Assembly (NCBI GenBank): GCA_002788855.1
Contig: PFSB01000006.1
Span: 99,292 to 163,291 of the forward strand
Source: Candidatus Roizmanbacteria bacterium CG_4_9_14_0_2_um_filter_38_17
Lineage (GTDB): Bacteria; Patescibacteriota; Microgenomatia; GCA-00278855
Direction of reading: 5' to 3'
Length of the DNA: 64,000 nucleotides
Shown here: piece after piece, positions 11,192-58,988 of the stretch
Layout: each line of letters opens with the position of its first letter
Position numbering within the stretch: the stretch's first letter is position 1
Program-made: the position numbers and the translations under genes
The notes under the pieces: generated by a model
What the model saw: only the letters and a program-made list of their open reading frames with translations
Database searches by the model: none
What the model was told of the DNA's origin: nothing

Positions 11192-11241
11192 TTTTTTCAC
11201 CCCTTCAGTAGCCCCTTGAGATTAGATCAGCTATATTTTTC

Positions 11242-11327
11242 CCATCTCTGACTGCTTGGTTGGTTCCTCGGTCTTCTGGATAAACTTGAGCCATATTTAC
11301 TAAATAGAGATTATCTATACCGGTTTT
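11242..11327 (-). pseudogene. Orphan 86-bp duplicate of the 3' end of the FAD-oxidoreductase gene (12159..12244)
   Basis: About 94 percent identity by eye to 12159..12244 (CCATCTCTGACTGCTTGGTTGG...TCTATACCGGTTTT); would encode the same C-terminal residues (...YLVNMAQVYPEDRGTNQAVRDGK) on the minus strand. Confidence 0.6.
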
Positions 11328-11344
11328 TTTGTTTTAAAACCGGG
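11321..11344. other. Hairpin CCGGTTTT-TTTGTTTT-AAAACCGG at duplication breakpoint
   Basis: 8-bp perfect stem, 8-nt loop, followed by palindromic GTTTTAAAAC. Confidence 0.3.
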
Positions 11345-11448
11345 TTTTAAAACAAATATGTTTCTGTCTTTAATCTTAGCAACTCTTTGGCGTCCACGCC
11401 TGAGTGCTATTGTGGGATTAGTATGTTTGTTATTGTCTATTTCTCTGT

Positions 11449-11546: not shown

Positions 11547-11822
11547 ATGACAATAACAATACCCATAACACAAGCAAGGGAAGAATTGACGAGCCTTGTG
11601 GATAATGTCAAGAGGAAGCTAGATGAGTATGTAATTACAGTTAATGGAACCCCTGCGGCGGTTGTGATATCTTCGGCAGAGTACGAATCTTGGAAAGAAA
11701 CAAATGAAATTCTATCTGATTTGGAACTTACAAAAGCTATAAAGAAGGGTGAGAAAGATGTAGATAAAGGACGGATTTATTCTCTTGAACAGCTGAGAAA
11801 AGAATTGAAACTTGTTTTTTAA
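11547..11822 (+). CDS. Phd/YefM-family antitoxin
   Basis: 91 aa, N-terminal ITQAREELTSLVDNV...VNGTPAAVVISSAEYESWKET typical Phd/YefM fold; immediately upstream of RelE-like gene. Confidence 0.75.
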   Translation: MTITIPITQAREELTSLVDNVKRKLDEYVITVNGTPAAVVISSAEYESWKETNEILSDLELTKAIKKGEKDVDKGRIYSLEQLRKELKLVF

Positions 11823-11827
11823 GTAAG

Positions 11828-12079
11828 ATGTATAGAATACTTATTACTTCTCAAGCTAGAAAAGAACTCAAAAAGATTAAAAAGAAATACCAGCAAGCAA
11901 TAGTAGAAATACTTGTTGAGCTTCAAGAAAATCCCAGATCAGGCAAGCCCCTAACGCGAGAGTTGACTGGAAAATTTTCTTATAAGGTAGGAGTATATAG
12001 AATAATATATACAATTAATGACCTAGATAAGACAATCCATATTCTAACAGCGGGTCATCGTTCTAGTGTATATAAATAG
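11828..12079 (+). CDS. RelE/ParE-family toxin (type II)
   Basis: 83 aa, basic N-terminus, C-terminal ...YRIIYTINDLDKTIHILTAGHRS consistent with RelE/ParE. Confidence 0.75.
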   Translation: MYRILITSQARKELKKIKKKYQQAIVEILVELQENPRSGKPLTRELTGKFSYKVGVYRIIYTINDLDKTIHILTAGHRSSVYK

Positions 12080-12118: not shown

Positions 12119-13447
12119 TTAGTATTCACCAAAGATGATTTTGTCTGCAATTGATTTTCCATCTCTGACTGCTTGGTTGGTGCCTCTGTCTTCCGGATAA
12201 ACTTGAGCCATGTTTACTAAATAGAGATTATCTATACCGGTTTTAACAGGTGGGATATAGTTATGATAATTTGTGTCTACGATGGGTTGAGCAAACTTAT
12301 CTCTAAATATCCAATGTGCATCTACAAAGGACTTGTTAAATTTGGGATTAATTTTCTTTAGTTCTTTAACAATTAGCTCAAATAAGTCTGTTTTATTCAT
12401 GGTCATTAACTCGTCCGTCTGGGCTGGGTAGGCACCAGCATAAAGCAAGTGAGCTCCACTATATTTATTTGGTGATACAAAATTAGTATGTTCAACTACA
12501 GCCAGAATATGTGAATTTGGATCGTTAACGTTTAGCCAATAGATATCTTTCATAAATTGTTTTTTTAGTTGCAAGATGGCCACCATTGCCCCACGATACT
12601 TAACCTTAGCCAGTTTTTCTGTATATTCTGCTGGTAAAGATGGGCAAAGCTTGGCAAAGACTGGATTTGGGGTTGTGACAATAATTTTGTCATATTGCAA
12701 GGTTTGACCTTTTTGAACTTGCAGGGTCAAACCCTGTTTGCTTGAAGGTTTAATTTCAACAATGTCTGAATTGGTATAGAGATTTACCTGCTTATTCCTA
12801 AGCTTCTCTAATAGCTTATCAATTAATAATTTAAATCCTCCATCAAGATAGACCAGCTCCTCATTAGCGCCGTTTCTGGATTTGCTTCGAAGATATAGCC
12901 TTGACCAGAGCCAAGCCATGGATATGCTGTCTGCGTGTTCTCCAAACTTTCCCTTTAAAAGTGGTTCCCAGATTATCTTATATGCCCTTCGGCCCGCGTA
13001 TTTGAGAATCCAGTTGCCAGCTGACAACTGTGCTAGCTTTTTCCAATTTTTATCAGTAACAAATTTTTGTAGATATATTGCCACAAACCCCAGTCTAATT
13101 CGGTCAATAAGGGGTAGAGGAGAGAAATGAAGTAAGTCTTTTGGTGTGGAGAAAGAGTAGATTTTACTGTTGTAGTGGATACCTACTGAACTTGGTAAAT
13201 AAAGTAGCTTATGATCAATATTTAGTTCGTGAATAAGGCCAATAATATCTTTGTCAGATTTAAATAGGTGATGATAGTAGCCTTCAAAACCTACTCCATT
13301 TACTGTAAGCAATCCCAGTAGTCCACCAAAATTAGCATTTTTTTCGTATAGATCTATCTGGTATTCGGGGTTTTGTGAGAGATAATAGGTTGTGCTTAAT
13401 CCTGACATGCCTCCTCCGATTATTGCAATTTTTGTTTTCATGCTCAA
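12119..13447 (-). CDS. FAD-dependent oxidoreductase (amine oxidase / desaturase / UDP-galactopyranose-mutase-like fold)
   Basis: N-terminal dinucleotide motif KIAIIGGGMSGLSTTYYL, 442 aa. Confidence 0.6.
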   Translation of the reverse strand: MSMKTKIAIIGGGMSGLSTTYYLSQNPEYQIDLYEKNANFGGLLGLLTVNGVGFEGYYHHLFKSDKDIIGLIHELNIDHKLLYLPSSVGIHYNSKIYSFSTPKDLLHFSPLPLIDRIRLGFVAIYLQKFVTDKNWKKLAQLSAGNWILKYAGRRAYKIIWEPLLKGKFGEHADSISMAWLWSRLYLRSKSRNGANEELVYLDGGFKLLIDKLLEKLRNKQVNLYTNSDIVEIKPSSKQGLTLQVQKGQTLQYDKIIVTTPNPVFAKLCPSLPAEYTEKLAKVKYRGAMVAILQLKKQFMKDIYWLNVNDPNSHILAVVEHTNFVSPNKYSGAHLLYAGAYPAQTDELMTMNKTDLFELIVKELKKINPKFNKSFVDAHWIFRDKFAQPIVDTNYHNYIPPVKTGIDNLYLVNMAQVYPEDRGTNQAVRDGKSIADKIIFGEY

Positions 13448-17244: not shown

Positions 17245-18347
17245 TGTTAATAGGTGTTGATGGTAATGAGGCTAATCAAGACACAAGGGTAGGAATTGGT
17301 AGGTATGCGATGGAACTGCTATGGCAGTTCTACAATTTTCAAATACCAAATATCAAACTCCAAATTTATTTAAAAGATAAACCGAGAGGCCATATGCCTA
17401 AAGAGAAAGATGGGTGGGAATATAAAATTGTTGGTCCTCGAGCGTTTTGGACACAAATAGGTCTACCAATTGATCTATTTTTAGACAAAAATAGACCAGA
17501 TATATTCTGGACACCAACACATTATGCTCCGCGTTTTTGCCCCGTCCCAAGTATTGTATCGATCATGGACACTTCGTATCTACACTATCCAGAAATGTTT
17601 AAGAAAAGAGATCTATATCAATTGACGAGTTGGAGCAAATATTCAATAAATAACGCAGCTATGGTTTTGACTATCAGTAAAGCAGCAAGAGCTGATATAA
17701 TTAAGTTCTATAATGTTGATCCGACAAAAGTAGTGGTTACTTATCCGGGGATTGTAATGAATAAAAATATACTAACGAATAAGATTTTAGCTAAATATGG
17801 AATTAAGCCCAACTTTATTCTGTATGTTGGCACGCTTCAGCCACGCAAGAATTTAGTTCGCTTAATAGAGGCATTTGGTCTGTTGGAAAATAAGACGTTG
17901 CAGTTAGTTATAGTTGGAAAAAAAGGTTGGTTGTTTGACGAGATATTTACAAAAGTAAATGAGCTAGGACTGGAAGATAGAGTTATTTTTACAGGATTTG
18001 TGCCGGACGAAGAACTTTCAAGCTTCTATCAAGAAGCCAAGCTAATTACTTTAGTAAGTCTGTATGAGGGATTTGGGTTACCACCTCTTGAGGCGATGAG
18101 TTATGGTACGCCAGCTGTAGTTTCAAATGTCTCTAGTTTGCCGGAGATTGTTGGTGAGGCGGGTATTTTAGTTAATCCAGAGGATTCATCAGATATAGCC
18201 TCCGGAATAACGAAGGCTCTTACTATGTCTGATTCGGCTTATAATAAGCAAAGGGAGCTGGCAAAAGCACAAGCAGCTAAGTTTAATTGGAGTGACACAG
18301 CTAGAGAGACGCTTCAAGTATTGCAAAGTGTAGTTGGGAATATATAA
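17241..18347 (+). CDS. GT4 family glycosyltransferase
   Basis: C-terminal EGFGLPPLEAMSYGTPAVVS (glycos_transf_1 EX7E region). Confidence 0.75.
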   Translation: MMLIGVDGNEANQDTRVGIGRYAMELLWQFYNFQIPNIKLQIYLKDKPRGHMPKEKDGWEYKIVGPRAFWTQIGLPIDLFLDKNRPDIFWTPTHYAPRFCPVPSIVSIMDTSYLHYPEMFKKRDLYQLTSWSKYSINNAAMVLTISKAARADIIKFYNVDPTKVVVTYPGIVMNKNILTNKILAKYGIKPNFILYVGTLQPRKNLVRLIEAFGLLENKTLQLVIVGKKGWLFDEIFTKVNELGLEDRVIFTGFVPDEELSSFYQEAKLITLVSLYEGFGLPPLEAMSYGTPAVVSNVSSLPEIVGEAGILVNPEDSSDIASGITKALTMSDSAYNKQRELAKAQAAKFNWSDTARETLQVLQSVVGNI

Positions 18348-18364
18348 AGATCGGATCTTTATTA
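18341..18364. repeat. REP-A palindrome (TATATAAAGATC-G-GATCTTTATTA)
   Basis: Near-perfect 11/12-bp-arm hairpin; same element flanks RAYT at 34619 and 35345. Confidence 0.7.
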
Positions 18365-18369
18365 ATTAT

Positions 18370-34618: not shown

Positions 34619-34643
34619 CATATAAAGATCCGATCTTTATATA
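34619..34643. repeat. REP-A palindrome (CATATAAAGATC-C-GATCTTTATATG), inverted orientation
   Basis: Perfect 12-bp arms around single C. Confidence 0.75.
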
Positions 34644-35344
34644 TGATATTATTAGTTTGTATGAGACTAGTCAATTTTGTGAATGGTCAGGTTTATCACA
34701 TATATAACAGAGGTGTTCGCAAGGATTTACTTTTTTATAGAGATTCTGACTATGTGAGGTGGGAAAATCTTTTATCCTGGTGTTCTAACTATAGCTATCC
34801 ATTTAGTAGTTATGTTCAAGGGCTAAAATCGCTTAGTAAGGAGAAGGCTAGTCTTGATGCCTATCAAGAACGTATAGAAAAAGAATATCGTTACAGTCGG
34901 CCTCTTGTTAATATTCTTTGCTATATTGAGATGCCTAATCATTTTCACTTAGTTCTCGAGCAAAACGTTGAATCAGGCATTTCTTTGTTTATGCAAAAGC
35001 TGTCCATTGCGTATGCAATGTATCTTAATAGTAAATATGAGCTATCTGGGTCAGCTTTTCAAGGTAAATATAAGTTTGTACACGTAGAAACAGATGCTCA
35101 GCTAGTTCAGCTGTTAAAGTATATGTTACTTAATCCCGTAGTTGCACTCATAGTTTCAATTTTAAATCTAAAAAAATATAAATGGTCAGCACTTAAAGAG
35201 TATTTGGGAAATACTGACAAGATGATAGTCGACACAACCAAGTTGCCTAGTGTGTTTATAAACCCACAGGAGTTATTAAATTTTCTTAAAGAGGAGTCAG
35301 GCTCTGGATTTACAGCGGAACTTGGTTCACTAGTTATAGACTAA
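34643..35344 (+). mobile_element. REP-associated tyrosine transposase (RAYT; IS200-like Y1/HuH transposase) copy 1
   Basis: HuH motif MPNHFHLVL, C-terminal KYMLLNPV (variant of RAYT Y-x-H-x-N-P motif, His replaced by Leu); flanked by inverted REP-A hairpins; probable true start MRLVNF at 34661. Confidence 0.7.
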
Positions 35345-35369
35345 TATATAAAGATCGGATCTTTATATA
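35345..35369. repeat. REP-A palindrome (TATATAAAGATC-G-GATCTTTATATA)
   Basis: Perfect 12-bp arms immediately after RAYT stop. Confidence 0.75.
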
Positions 35370-35427
35370 TTGGTTGTGGTGAAGATGTCTTGACACGTAG
35401 CTTAAATGTGGTGTAGAGTGGATATAA

Positions 35428-38693: not shown

Positions 38694-38722
38694 AGTTAAT
38701 TGTTTTAGCTCTTATTAGCGGT

Positions 38723-38747
38723 CTATTAAAAACTGGGTTTTTAATAG
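38723..38747. repeat. REP-B palindrome (CTATTAAAAAC-TGG-GTTTTTAATAG)
   Basis: Perfect 11-bp stem, 3-nt loop. Confidence 0.75.
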
Positions 38748-38771
38748 AATATTTGGTATTCTTGTATTGTT

Positions 38772-39482
38772 ATGAGAAAAGATGCGGTGTTTGTAGTCGG
38801 TGAGTTTTATCATGTATATAATAGAGGAACTCGTAAAAGCGAAATATTTTTGAATGAAAGTGATTATAGACGATGAGATGAGTGTTTGTATTGGAGTAAT
38901 AATTTTGGCTATCCCTATAGTCTTCTAAGACAGCAAATTAATCAGGCGAAAAAGAGTGGTAGAAATATTAAAGAAGTAGTTGAACAAATTGAAATGCAGT
39001 ACCGATTATTTGAGTCTTTGGTTAATGTAATTTCTTACGCACATATGCCAAATCACTTTCACCTAGTCTTGAGGCAAAATGTAGATAATGGAATATCAAA
39101 ATTTATGCATAAAATGTCGGCTTCTTATGCAAAGTACTTTAACAAGAAGTACAATCTAACCGGATCACTGTATGAAGGAAATTTTAGAGCGATTCAGATA
39201 ATATCTGAACCTCAACTATTAGAAGTTAGTAGATATGTTCATATTAATCCAACTGTAGCAGGAATTGTTGATATAAAGGGTTTGCTTACATATCCCTGGA
39301 CATCGTTGCGTTTATATGTAGGAGAAGTGAATAATAAGCTCGTTGATATCAGTTATTTACTCGGCTTAAGTAATAATAACGCAGAAGAGCTGGTAAGGTT
39401 TACTCTTTCCAGGATTAGCGATGATAATGAAGGACTATTGGAAGGGATAATGATTGATGGTAACAAATTAGCCCGTAAATAA
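38772..39482 (+). pseudogene. RAYT copy 2, disrupted by in-frame TGA (TGG to TGA at the Trp position conserved in copy 1)
   Basis: ATG 38772 gives MRKDAVFVVGEFYHVYNRGTRKSEIFLNESDYRR-stop-DECLYW...; downstream part intact with MPNHFHLVL and RYVHINPTVAGIV (Y-x-H-x-N-P) motifs; copy 1 has DSDYVRWENLLSW at the equivalent position. Confidence 0.65.
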
Positions 39483-39485
39483 GCT

Positions 39486-39510
39486 CTATTAAAAACCCAG
39501 TTTTTAATAG
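39486..39510. repeat. REP-B palindrome, inverted orientation (CTATTAAAAAC-CCA-GTTTTTAATAG)
   Basis: Exact reverse complement of copy at 38723. Confidence 0.75.
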
Positions 39511-39642
39511 AATTGCAGTGATTATGAAGAGGGTGTGAAGGATAAATCCGGTGATGTACCAGGAAGAGCTACTAGTACTAGCTCACATATAGGAAACTAG
39601 CAGTTTTTAGGTGGAAGATAAGACTTAAGATATAATACATCC

Positions 39643-45797: not shown

Positions 45798-45824
45798 ATA
45801 TCTGGATTGGATCTAGTTCTGGCT

Positions 45825-45890
45825 CTATTAAAAACTGGGTTTTTAATAGGTTGTTAAATCAAGCTATTAAGGGGGTCAACTATTTAAATT
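45825..45890. repeat. REP-B palindrome plus about 40-bp extension; left copy of direct repeat bounding 1.5-kb cassette
   Basis: CTATTAAAAACTGGGTTTTTAATAG then TTGTTAAATCAAGCTATTAAGGGGGTC...TTTAAATT; matches 47377..47443. Confidence 0.7.
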
Positions 45891-46013
45891 ACAGGAAGTG
45901 ATTTCCATTATTGGGACACAGAGCTCGTAATACTTTTTAAACTTCAAAAAAAGTTCCAAAATTTTTGTCATTCAAAAGTTAACCTCATTTTAAGTTCGAA
46001 TCCCACTCGGCCG

Positions 46014-46022
46014 TGGTATAAT
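46014..46022 (+). promoter_or_regulatory. Extended -10 (TGGTATAAT) for cassette operon
   Basis: 6 nt upstream of ATG 46029, leaderless configuration. Confidence 0.4.
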
Positions 46023-46028
46023 AATTGT

Positions 46029-46469
46029 ATGGAAACCTTTCTTAATTTTCTAACAGTATTCGGGCTTGGAAGCGTTATAACTGTATTTATCACACACAAA
46101 CTAAAACAATCCTCAGAATCAAAAATAAAAATGAGAGAATTAAAAGAAAATCAATATAAAAGTCTTCTTAATAATTTAATGGGTTTTTTTGAGGGATGGG
46201 AAGACTATGCAGTTGCAGATAAAAAAGCTCGCAAGAAACAATTCTTGTGGGAAGTTTATACAAGCGTTCCTGTATATGCATCAGATGTGGTTATAAGGCT
46301 TTGCTATGAGTTTATAGAAAGCCATAACAAAGAAGGGAAATTGAAAGGAGAGAGCAATAAAATTTATTCAAAAATCGTAATTGCTATGAGAATGGAATTA
46401 AATAAAATTTATGGTCAGCCAGATACTACACTTTCAGAGAAAGACATTAAAGTTCTTAAAGTTGATTAA
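46029..46469 (+). CDS. Hypothetical membrane-anchored protein (1 TM plus 120-aa soluble domain)
   Basis: N-terminal FLNFLTVFGLGSVITVFITH helix; no known motif. Confidence 0.45.
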   Translation: METFLNFLTVFGLGSVITVFITHKLKQSSESKIKMRELKENQYKSLLNNLMGFFEGWEDYAVADKKARKKQFLWEVYTSVPVYASDVVIRLCYEFIESHNKEGKLKGESNKIYSKIVIAMRMELNKIYGQPDTTLSEKDIKVLKVD

Positions 46470-46508
46470 TGATTCAAAGCAGAGCAGACAAAATTACAAA
46501 AACTGACA

Positions 46509-47330
46509 ATGAATATTTTTCAGAGTAAGTACTTCAACGTTGTTCTTCCAGTTTTATTTGTTTTGTTTCTTTTGCTGCTACTTGTCTATGGTTGTTTAAT
46601 TGGCATATATGATGTTATAACTTTAGCTGTAAATGCCGTCCTTATGCTCCTTGCTACGCTAATTGCAATTTCACTACCTTTGTATGCAAGCGCGAAAAAT
46701 GAACAAAAACGCAGGGATAAGGAACATGAAATGATTTATGTATCTGTATCCCGATACGTTGGCGGTGAAATCTTGGATAATGTTATAGAGATTCAAGATA
46801 TTCTAAAAAATAATGAAAAATCTCTAGGCCAACTGGATAAACAAAATCTTTCTATGTCAGAAAGAGATAAAAAAATAGTTACCGCTTCTATATGGAAAAC
46901 GGCTTCAGAAATCCTTGTTGGTTCGCTTCAGGATAAACATCACAACAATATGGTTATGTCTGGTTTAGTAGCCAAAATTCCCGATGACGCTGTTGGCAAC
47001 GGAATTCGTGATACTTATCAAAAAATGGATAATCTAAAAAAGCGACTCAAAAGCATAACGATGTTTTTTGGAATGCTTATATCTCCCCAAGTTGGGGTTT
47101 CTAAAACATTCTTGGATTATCAGTTTAATACGAAACTGCAAGAAGGTATTACTGCTGTTGAATTGGATATAAAGATATTTAGCGATTCTGCAGAAAAAAC
47201 TAGAAAAGACATTAACAAGCTACTGAAACAATATGGGAAAGAGATTAAAATTATAGCTTATGAAAAAGTACATAACTCTGAAAAAGGATCTAGAAAAACT
47301 GAAAAATCTTCCATTTCTTCAAAAAAATGA
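46509..47330 (+). CDS. Hypothetical membrane protein (2 N-terminal TM plus helical soluble domain, Lys/Ser-rich tail)
   Basis: VLPVLFVLFLLLLLVYGCLIGIYDVITLAVNAVLMLLATLIAISLPLY; no known motif. Confidence 0.45.
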   Translation: MNIFQSKYFNVVLPVLFVLFLLLLLVYGCLIGIYDVITLAVNAVLMLLATLIAISLPLYASAKNEQKRRDKEHEMIYVSVSRYVGGEILDNVIEIQDILKNNEKSLGQLDKQNLSMSERDKKIVTASIWKTASEILVGSLQDKHHNNMVMSGLVAKIPDDAVGNGIRDTYQKMDNLKKRLKSITMFFGMLISPQVGVSKTFLDYQFNTKLQEGITAVELDIKIFSDSAEKTRKDINKLLKQYGKEIKIIAYEKVHNSEKGSRKTEKSSISSKK

Positions 47331-47376
47331 GCAAGAGATTGTTGATAAATAGCTATAGCTATGGTTGAAAGATGTT

Positions 47377-47443
47377 TCTATTAAAAACTGGGTTTTAAAT
47401 AGATTGTTAAATCAAGCTTTTAAGGAGGTCTACCCTTTAAATT
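47377..47443. repeat. REP-B variant plus extension; right copy of direct repeat bounding cassette
   Basis: CTATTAAAAACTGGGTTTTAAATAG then ATTGTTAAATCAAGCTTTTAAGGAGGTC...TTTAAATT. Confidence 0.7.
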
Positions 47444-47579
47444 TCAGACCCTTTAAATCCAGATAATGGGGTCAGCCACCTATTTAGAAAAAATACAAGG
47501 ACAAATCTTGTAGAAAATATATATGCAAATTTTCTACTCAATTGGGAAACGGCACCTTTTTTCATTTAACGCTCAACTT

Positions 47580-58793: not shown

Positions 58794-58834
58794 AATTATA
58801 TAGAGCGTCGCTCTATTAAGGCCTTGTTTACAAC

Positions 58835-58859
58835 CTATTAAAAACTGGGTTTTTAATAG
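58835..58859. repeat. REP-B palindrome (fifth copy)
   Basis: CTATTAAAAACTGGGTTTTTAATAG. Confidence 0.75.
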
Positions 58860-58988
58860 GAAAGAGCGGAAGCTTCAAAGCCGAGCTTTATGCTCTAGTA
58901 TATAGTTTGGTTTTAGAATCGCTTAACTTAAAGCAATGCTATTTATTACATAAAAAGCCTCGCTTTGTTTCACTTGCTTACTGAAAAG

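Follow-up and report, generated by a model that had tools for sequence, protein, structure and literature searches.

A Y1 HUH enzyme gene between matching perfect palindromes in a Candidatus Roizmanbacteria genome, a probable module of the REPtron/TIRtron type

Introduction

Genes for tyrosine transposases associated with repetitive extragenic palindromes (REPs), the REP-associated tyrosine transposases (RAYTs), form together with their REPs the modules called REPtrons, which are reportedly known from the work of Nunvar, of Bertels and Rainey, of Ton-Hoang and of Messing. Two REPs that lie inverted with a short spacer between them make up a bacterial interspersed mosaic element (BIME) or REP doublet forming a hairpin (REPIN). 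To our knowledge, RAYT/REP systems have been studied almost exclusively in Proteobacteria, and the spreading of hairpins by the enzyme is still unsolved. Genomes of Patescibacteria are about 1 Mb in size and otherwise repeat-poor. Here, a stretch of 64,000 nt (hereafter the window) from Candidatus Roizmanbacteria bacterium CG_4_9_14_0_2_um_filter_38_17 was analyzed, corresponding to positions 99,292 to 163,291 of contig PFSB01000006.1 (assembly GCA_002788855.1). At positions 34661..35344 of its plus strand, the window carries a gene, named copy 1, for a Y1 HUH protein of 227 aa (RAYT-like, TnpA-Y1 class 2), and this gene lies between two copies of a perfect palindrome, named REP-A. Copy 1 and REP-A probably constitute a module of the REPtron/TIRtron type (TIR, terminal inverted repeat), that is, a vertically inherited gene for an IS200-related Y1 HUH nuclease/ligase of single-stranded DNA (ssDNA) flanked by its cognate palindrome.

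Class 2 of the TnpA-Y1 proteins is defined by the motif Y-x-x-x-N-P, whereas IS200-type transposases have Y-x-x-x-Q (PMC6006769). Within this class, the proteins of subclass 2.1 have NH[YF]H, FQ, Y[IV]HLNP and 'SS' as their motifs, with a median length of 238 aa (Quentin et al. 2018, PMC6006769); the subclass is equivalent to Group 1 of Bertels and, largely, to the TIR-associated tyrosine transposases (TIRYTs) of Di Nocera (PMC6006769). TIRs form moderately abundant families, some of them wholly self-complementary, and most carry the motif GGGGWSAS (Di Nocera et al. 2013, PMC3733652); for some TIRYTs, self-complementary TIRs without GGGGWSAS have been described (PMC3733652). The 16-mers that flank RAYT genes of Group 1 reach a modest abundance of about 12 per replicon (Bertels et al. 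2017, PMC5581495).

Results

Copy 1 is an intact gene for a Y1 HUH protein

The longest open reading frame (ORF) of copy 1 extends over positions 34643-35344 (+) and ends with the stop codon at 35342-35344, and according to the family alignment translation likely starts at the ATG at 34661 (MRLVNF...; MRLVNFVNGQVYHIYNRG...), which gives a protein of 227 aa. The HuH motif MPNHFHLVL and the Y-x-x-x-N-P motif KYMLLNPV, both of which had been recognized in a first-pass annotation of this DNA, are read in the protein, and its key residues are H94 and H96 of the HuH motif, the predicted catalytic Tyr154, and Asn158. In the Pfam search, Y1_Tnp alone was matched (25 bits with a cutoff of 23, E 2e-5), and no helix-turn-helix (HTH) or DnaA_C-like C-terminal domain was found at E<=1. 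When the single copy 1 sequence was compared with the PDB by phmmer, only a spurious match to a protein resembling protein disulfide isomerase was obtained, and the family profile gave weak matches to ISDra2 TnpA and to 4ER8, so that structure prediction and Foldseek were required for placement of the fold. The AlphaFold2 model obtained with a 49-sequence alignment (pLDDT 92, pTM 0.89) has E. coli TnpA-REP with its REP hairpin bound (4ER8, E 2e-5) as its best PDB match, followed by the ISDra2, IS608 and IS200 transposases; residues 158-222 of the model form short helices, with a pLDDT of about 60 at the very end.

Among the 49 family members, all were matched by the NCBIfam profile REP_Tyr_transpos (NF047646) at E<=0.01 (best E 3.9e-16) and a single one by the transpos_IS200 profile (E 0.009). 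Homologs of the gene are found in their overwhelming majority in metagenome-assembled genomes (MAGs) of Patescibacteria, also known as candidate phyla radiation (CPR). The family alignment shows no variation at N93, H94, F95, H96, N123, G130 and N158, and Y154 is found in 90% or more of the members. The profile and fold comparisons support the placement of copy 1 as a Y1 HUH enzyme on the RAYT side of the family, and not as a Rep protein or relaxase, two unrelated HuH families to which it showed no better match. With MPNHFH, LFQG, YIHLNP and Y-x-x-SSY as its consensus and a length of about 230 aa, the family corresponds to subclass 2.1 of the TnpA-Y1 proteins (Group 1 of Bertels, TIRYTs) rather than to RAYTs of the E. 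coli type, as judged from motifs only, and copy 1 itself departs from this consensus with YMLLNP and with WSA (S-A for S-S).

Leu in place of His at the second position after the tyrosine (Y+2) had been taken in the first-pass annotation as a possible cause of altered activity. This suspicion was not borne out, as the active TnpA-REP from E. coli has Tyr at this position (YIYINP), and Leu is present in copy 1 and in its whole clade (P0002, P0004, P0012). In other published subclasses the residue at Y+2 is V/I, L/R, D or E (PMC6006769). Leu at Y+2 thus characterizes the clade, at a position that varies, and is no sign of decay.

Two relatives of the window permit a comparison at the same locus. 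One of them, L001, carries an ortholog of copy 1 with 78% aa identity, and the other, L089 (JGI Ga0209541_10018281), is an orthologous region with about 88% nt identity to the window. Copy 1 is syntenic in both, and from the comparison with the L001 ortholog (dN 0.123, dS 0.796) a dN/dS of 0.15 is obtained. Copy 1 is intact and under purifying selection, in agreement with the intact appearance noted earlier.

REP-A palindromes flank copy 1 and are dispersed at low copy number

REP-A, defined as ATATAAAGATC-N-GATCTTTATAT, has three matches in the window, with 0 matches expected from 100 dinucleotide shuffles. The left copy (34620..34642; ATATAAAGATC-C-GATCTTTATAT) is a perfect 11+1+11 palindrome of 23 nt with 0 mismatches that ends 18 nt 5' of the likely start of copy 1, and its predicted folding energy as an ssDNA hairpin is -5.5 kcal/mol (z -6.0). 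The right copy (35343..35371; AATATATAAAGATC-G-GATCTTTATATATT) is a perfect 14+1+14 palindrome that overlaps the stop codon of copy 1 and contains the core match at 35346-35368 with 0 mismatches and G at its centre; as an ssDNA hairpin its folding energy is -9.5 kcal/mol (z -7.9). The two perfect palindromes of 25 bp that had been described around the gene are thus both perfect, but neither has the implied form 12+1+12, the left one being 23 nt and not 25 nt long because C34619 is unpaired with A34643. The third, solo copy (18339..18367, core 18342-18364, centre G) has 2 mismatches in its right arm and, as reported before, lies between a GT4 and an acetyltransferase gene: it is located in the 23-nt gap between the gene for a GT4 glycosyltransferase, the stop codon of which it includes, and that for a hexapeptide acyltransferase. 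The TIR motif GGGGWSAS is absent around the aligned REP copies.

The orthologs of copy 1 in L001 and L089 are likewise bracketed by REP-A, and in L001 the palindrome is identical while the DNA around it is only 72-76% identical. When the window was extended by about 10 kb on each side to 83 kb of the source contig, 2 REP copies were added, so that 4 REP-A and 6 REP-B (the palindrome of a second module, see below) are present, every solo copy being intergenic. Most solos lie a few tens of nt 3' of a plus-strand gene, and two are located about 170-270 nt past the nearest called gene. An exact-pattern scan of JGI metagenomes detected REP-A in 10 further stretches, of which L089 is orthologous to the window and the others represent different loci (contig GC 37-43%). 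At least 5 further REP-A loci are present in related metagenome contigs, and one related contig of 51 kb carries three exact copies. Among 185,579 GTDB representative genomes, which do not include the source species or close relatives, exact REP-A had 0 matches. REP-A is thus a real, dispersed and lineage-restricted repeat of low copy number, which by rough extrapolation amounts to tens of copies per Mb, and its presence at other loci is what the first-pass annotation had made its own interpretation depend on.

Two REP-A-containing contigs show particular arrangements. In L085 (9637-10196), two exact REP-A copies, both with centre C, are located 537 nt apart around an ORF of 86 aa. In L086 (1745-1767; also in L087, L091 and L093), exact REP-A is located in frame inside an ORF for a multi-pass membrane protein of 410 aa and is translated as YIKIRSLY, which resembles in-frame REP insertions described in other bacteria.

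Bracketing by matching hairpins is widespread in the family

Eighty loci with relatives of copy 1 were taken from GTDB representative genomes, out of at least 514 confirmed relatives, and the 200 nt up- and downstream of each gene were searched for an exact common stretch of at least 16 nt. Such a stretch was shared by both flanks of 61 out of 83 homologous genes, as compared with 6 out of 739 control ORFs from the same loci (Fisher p 4.5e-66), and 53 of the 61 stretches contained a hairpin. When perfect stems of 7 bp or longer were required on each side, 35 genes remained, and among these the left hairpin typically ends about 17-30 nt 5' of the start codon, with the right hairpin starting no more than about 12 nt from the stop codon. 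The palindrome differs by lineage, and even paralogs in one locus do not share their palindrome (L012, L013, L021, L078 and the window).

In many homologs labelled Saccharibacteria or Paceibacterota (loci L009, L026, L032, L035, L037, L043, L047, L048, L055 and L059), the flanking hairpins have the top of the stem and the loop in common (…AGG-TCTTG-CCT… or its complement) and differ in their lower stems, a possible sign that a recognition feature is conserved and the stems co-vary.

A second module consists of copy 2 and REP-B

A paralog of copy 1 with 40% identity, named copy 2, is present at 38772..39482 (+; 236 codons) and is flanked by its own palindrome REP-B (CTATTAAAAAC-TGG-GTTTTTAATAG), with matches at 38723 and 39486. 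Three further REP-B matches are found in the window at 45825, 47378 and 58835 (five in all), and in 100 shuffles the pattern gave 0 matches. Copy 2 with REP-B is a second, independent module located 3.4 kb downstream of copy 1. The motif RYVHINPT assigned to copy 2 in the first-pass annotation was confirmed, and two features of the gene had been overlooked, its REP-B bracket and an in-frame TGA at 38874-38876. This TGA is codon 35 of copy 2 and corresponds to Trp in copy 1 and to TGG in the L089 ortholog, and because the latter gene is intact, copy 2 of the window is a recent nonsense pseudogene (TGG>TGA). Apart from the TGA, copy 2 is of full length and has historically been under purifying selection (dN/dS 0.068/0.642 in comparison with the L089 ortholog), and the REP-B family is still present. 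A truncated gene call of 198 aa for copy 2 is found in several assemblies of the same population. Recoding of UGA was considered and rejected, as all other genes of the window end normally under translation table 11 and L089 has TGG.

The left REP-B of copy 2 (38722..38748) is a perfect 12+3+12 palindrome (TCTATTAAAAAC-TGG-GTTTTTAATAGA), and the right one (39485..39511) starts 2 nt after the stop codon and has an inverted loop (CCA), which is TGG in L089. Of the solo copies, the one at 45825..45849 is intergenic and has the TGG loop, the one at 47378..47402 has 1 mismatch and lies 48 nt 3' of the stop codon of ORF 46509-47330, and the one at 58834..58860 (12+3+12) follows the stop codon of an ABC-F gene at a distance of about 40 nt and precedes murD. 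The first two of these solos belong to a direct repeat of 71 nt with 89% identity (45824-45894 and 47377-47447), which consists of REP-B and about 45 nt 3' of it and brackets ORFs 46029-46469 and 46509-47330, neither of which has a Pfam match. This two-ORF segment between extended REP-B copies may be a hairpin-bounded cassette.

Orientation and spacing of the hairpins

As the stems are perfect palindromes, orientation is carried by the loop alone. The opposite orientation of the REP-A pair that had been emphasized in the first-pass annotation is therefore reduced to a single central base (C versus G), and in L001 both copies flanking the gene have centre G and are direct. REP-B copies around copy 2 are direct in L089 (TGG/TGG) and inverted in the window, and among the 35 genes of the strict family set 19 have inverted loops, 13 have direct loops and 3 have differing loops. 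Evidently the loops flip, by template switching or recombination between copies. Closely spaced REP pairs were not found; all copies are single hairpins with nearest neighbours at least 726 nt apart, so that the BIME-like arrangement previously proposed is the wrong comparison, and the layout corresponds to a REPtron or TIRtron.

Relatives differ at the hairpins

In L001 (3638-4278) and L089 (6947-7581), a gene for a Ser-hydrolase and an extra REP-A are present between the Y1 gene and mraZ. At this site, the window has a single REP-A (35343-35371) without the hydrolase gene, and the alignment breakpoints lie inside REP-A. The unit of copy 2 and its two flanking REP-B copies, about 930 bp in size, is shared by the window and L089 and is missing from the 15-nt ftsI-murE spacer of L001. 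A TTAA target-site duplication was considered for this insertion, but it comprises only 4 nt and the left junction in L089 is TTAG, so that it is not decisive.

The segment 34586-35383, which comprises REP-A, copy 1 and REP-A, differs between the window and L089 by 4 mismatches in 759 nt (99.5% identity), whereas the adjacent 1.2 kb contains 130 mismatches in 1200 nt and is about 11% diverged (p 5e-32). With such a difference between module and flanks, the common ancestor of the module is younger than that of the DNA around it, suggesting a recent horizontal replacement of the REP-A/copy 1 module with ends near the hairpins. A possible source of this identity is an assembly artefact, although the usual assemblers are not confused by a repeat as short as 29 nt.

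Other features of the window

The window has a GC content of 37% and is 100% identical to part of contig PCTA01000010.1 of assembly GCA_002786635.1. Genes are arranged at the locus in the order glyS, a 150-aa ORF, the Y1 gene (copy 1), mraZ, rsmH, ftsL, ftsI, copy 2, murE and murF. Just 3' of the right REP-A and 5' of mraZ, a good sigma-70-like promoter is found at 35390-35419 (TTGACA, 18 nt, TAGAGT), which is kept in L001 and is probably the promoter of the division and cell wall (dcw) cluster. Rfam and tRNA scans of the window gave no matches, which places the hairpins outside known RNA families.

A direct repeat of 108 nt with 88% identity is located at 11220-11327 and 12137-12244, the second copy of which forms the 3' end of ORF 12119-13447 on the minus strand. 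The repeats enclose a perfect 14+1+14 hairpin at 11328-11356 (TTTGTTTTAAAACC-G-GGTTTTAAAACAAA) and two small ORFs (11547-11822 and 11828-12079) that by eye resemble a Phd/YefM antitoxin and a RelE/ParE toxin. Segment 11220-12244 looks like a putative toxin-antitoxin cassette that was inserted with duplication of the target gene end.

Discussion

If copy 1 and REP-A form a module of the REPtron/TIRtron type, the copy 1 protein would recognize the REP-A hairpin of 23-29 nt when it forms in single-stranded DNA, and it might cut and rejoin DNA beside the hairpin by means of Tyr154 and a metal coordinated by His94, His96 and Asn158. In the course of time a few solo hairpins would be seeded into intergenic gaps, and the hairpins would become preferred sites at which the DNA between them is gained, lost or replaced. 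Such catalysis and single-strand recognition are attributed to the protein by homology with TnpA-REP and with the TnpA proteins of IS608 and ISDra2, and we infer that the copy 1 protein is the agent that spreads the hairpins.

Several observations weigh against this interpretation. The identification of copy 1 as a RAYT in the first-pass annotation stands with regard to the fold, of which 4ER8 is the best match, and to the REP_Tyr_transpos profile, which recognizes all 49 members, but not with regard to class, as copy 1 reaches 29.6 bits where the NCBIfam RAYT equivalog cutoff is 80 and the motifs are those of subclass 2.1/TIRYT. Next to genes of subclass 2.1, the survey found no REP-like sequences (PMC6006769). 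The aligned REP copies have no common sequence outside the palindrome, and the 5' GT[AG]G foot of canonical REPs is absent from them; moreover, perfect palindromes are equally suited as binding sites of a dimer on double-stranded DNA. Copy number is low, with about 1 solo per 20-40 kb, and most related loci of 20 kb show only the two flanking copies. A solo is found at an orthologous site in L084 and L088, on contigs that are 13% diverged, so that mobility may be rare. Finally, the anomalous identity of the module to that of L089 is a caveat on vertical inheritance of copy 1.

An autonomous IS200-like insertion sequence (IS), in which the hairpins are subterminal ends, the unit of about 750 bp transposes, and solos are remnants or derivatives resembling miniature inverted-repeat transposable elements (MITEs), is the main rival explanation, though an unlikely one. 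It would account for hairpins at both ends at stereotyped distances as in IS200/IS608, for the lack of the copy 2 unit between ftsI and murE in L001, the window having TTAA at each junction of this unit, and for the REP-A unit that is nearly identical to L089 between diverged flanks and so suggests a history of its own. However, near-identical copies of the unit are lacking, the paralogs being as distant as 40% identity and having different hairpins, and copy 1 occupies the same chromosomal site in genomes separated by a dS of about 0.8. The motif Y-x-x-x-NP instead of Y-x-x-x-Q, the length of 227 aa instead of about 150 aa and the failure of copy 1 to match the IS200 profile argue against it as well, and the copy 2 insertion reaches 29 nt and about 117 nt past its hairpins, with TTAG and not TTAA at the left junction in L089. 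It is improbable, too, that the palindromes are host regulatory elements (dimer operators, mRNA-stabilizing 3' hairpins or attenuators) and that the Y1 protein is domesticated and moves no DNA. All solos do lie downstream of plus-strand genes at distances of up to about 50-270 nt and are kept at orthologous sites, 4 of the 5 REP-B copies have the same loop orientation, the position of the left hairpin just 5' of the Y1 start codon would suit a control of expression, and HTH-like C-terminal domains have been reported for subclass 2.1 proteins (PMC6006769). Nevertheless, the stems are AT-rich and are not followed by a T-run, none of the hairpins was flagged in a terminator/promoter scan, and Pfam reveals no HTH domain in the copy 1 protein. 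Palindromes are private to each paralog, and the bracket is found in 73% of homologs as compared with 0.8% of other genes, which makes generic terminators an unlikely explanation, and both the position of indel breakpoints inside the palindrome and the retention of the catalytic HuH, Tyr and Asn residues under purifying selection are difficult to reconcile with a purely regulatory role. That the bracket is a chance meeting of AT-rich palindromes in a low-GC genome is hardly conceivable: the window does have a GC content of 37% and contains several other unrelated palindromes, but neither pattern was matched in 100 shuffles, REP-A also flanks the ortholog in L001 and L089, and the enrichment in the family is far beyond expectation (Fisher p as given above).

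A bolder proposal, which we regard as rather unlikely, is that copy 1 belongs to a large undescribed radiation in Patescibacteria of subclass-2.1-like Y1 enzymes with private perfect palindromes at both ends of the gene, which act by hairpin-to-hairpin recombination, so that segments between hairpins are exchangeable cassettes and classical transposition does not take place. The apparent horizontal replacement of the Y1 module at a fixed locus, the gain or loss of the hydrolase gene with a breakpoint in REP-A, the small ORF between two REP-A copies in L085, and the two-gene segment between extended REP-B copies at 45824-47447 all fit such cassettes, although the support amounts to a handful of indels. 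If the cassette proposal is true, the flipping of loops between close relatives would be explained as a by-product.

With the REPtron/TIRtron interpretation preferred here, the logic of a gene with its cognate palindromes extends to Patescibacteria, and its substrates would be very simple, namely perfect hairpins of 23-29 nt without a guide tetranucleotide. Natural variation is at hand in the form of paralog-specific hairpins, a fresh pseudogene with a surviving REP-B family and REP-bounded indels. Simple substrates together with this variation could make the lineage a comparative and biochemical model. With regard to annotation, genes of this kind that are called 'transposase' in CPR MAGs are more aptly described as single-copy and RAYT/TIRYT-like than as active IS.

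Comparison with known systems

In literature searches, no paper was found that links RAYTs or REPs with Patescibacteria/CPR. With IS200/IS605 TnpA (IS608, ISDra2), copy 1 shares the HUH/Tyr core fold, the hairpins at both gene ends and the chemistry expected on ssDNA. It is distinguished from these elements by Y-x-x-x-NP versus Y-x-x-x-Q, by 227 versus about 150 aa and by the lack of a matching IS200 profile, and whereas IS200/IS605 elements occur as multiple near-identical copies, often with tnpB, the two paralogs of the window share 40% identity, with no tnpB nearby.

The E. coli REPtron (TnpA-REP/YafM/RayT, 4ER8) and the RAYT-REPIN system of Pseudomonas are similar in their Y1 HUH fold and their Y-x-x-x-NP motif. 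As in canonical REPtrons, a single-copy gene is located between cognate extragenic palindromes, there is one REP family per RAYT paralog, and solos are found in intergenic gaps after genes, with occasional in-frame copies in ORFs. In contrast to canonical REPtrons, the GT[AG]G foot is lacking, the stems are perfect and not imperfect or bulged, REPIN/BIME doublets are not formed, copies are in the tens (extrapolated) and not in the hundreds, and the protein is about 60 aa longer and scores far below the NCBIfam cutoff.

TIRtrons and their TIRYTs are similar in the family consensus (about 230 aa, NH[YF]H, FQ, Y[IV]HLNP and Ser-Ser after the Tyr helix), in the matched repeat that flanks the gene at stereotyped distances, and in the presence of several diverged paralogs per genome, each with its own repeat and with modest copy counts as in Group 1. 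Unlike most TIRs, the repeats described here lack GGGGWSAS and are short perfect AT-rich palindromes; unlike TIRYTs, copy 1 has YMLLNP and S-A in place of YIHLNP and S-S, and Pfam shows no HTH/DnaA_C-like domain in it. The surveys of TIRtrons and TIRYTs cover no Patescibacteria, to which the present host belongs, and unlike the subclass 2.1 genes of Quentin et al., for which no REP-like structures were reported, 73% of the homologs studied here have them. The type of system itself is therefore already known from REPtrons and from TIRtrons, some of the latter with self-complementary TIRs, and what appears to be new is the host phylum, the short perfect AT-rich hairpins without a guide tetranucleotide, and the association of REP-like repeats with proteins that by their motifs would be of the subclass 2.1 type.

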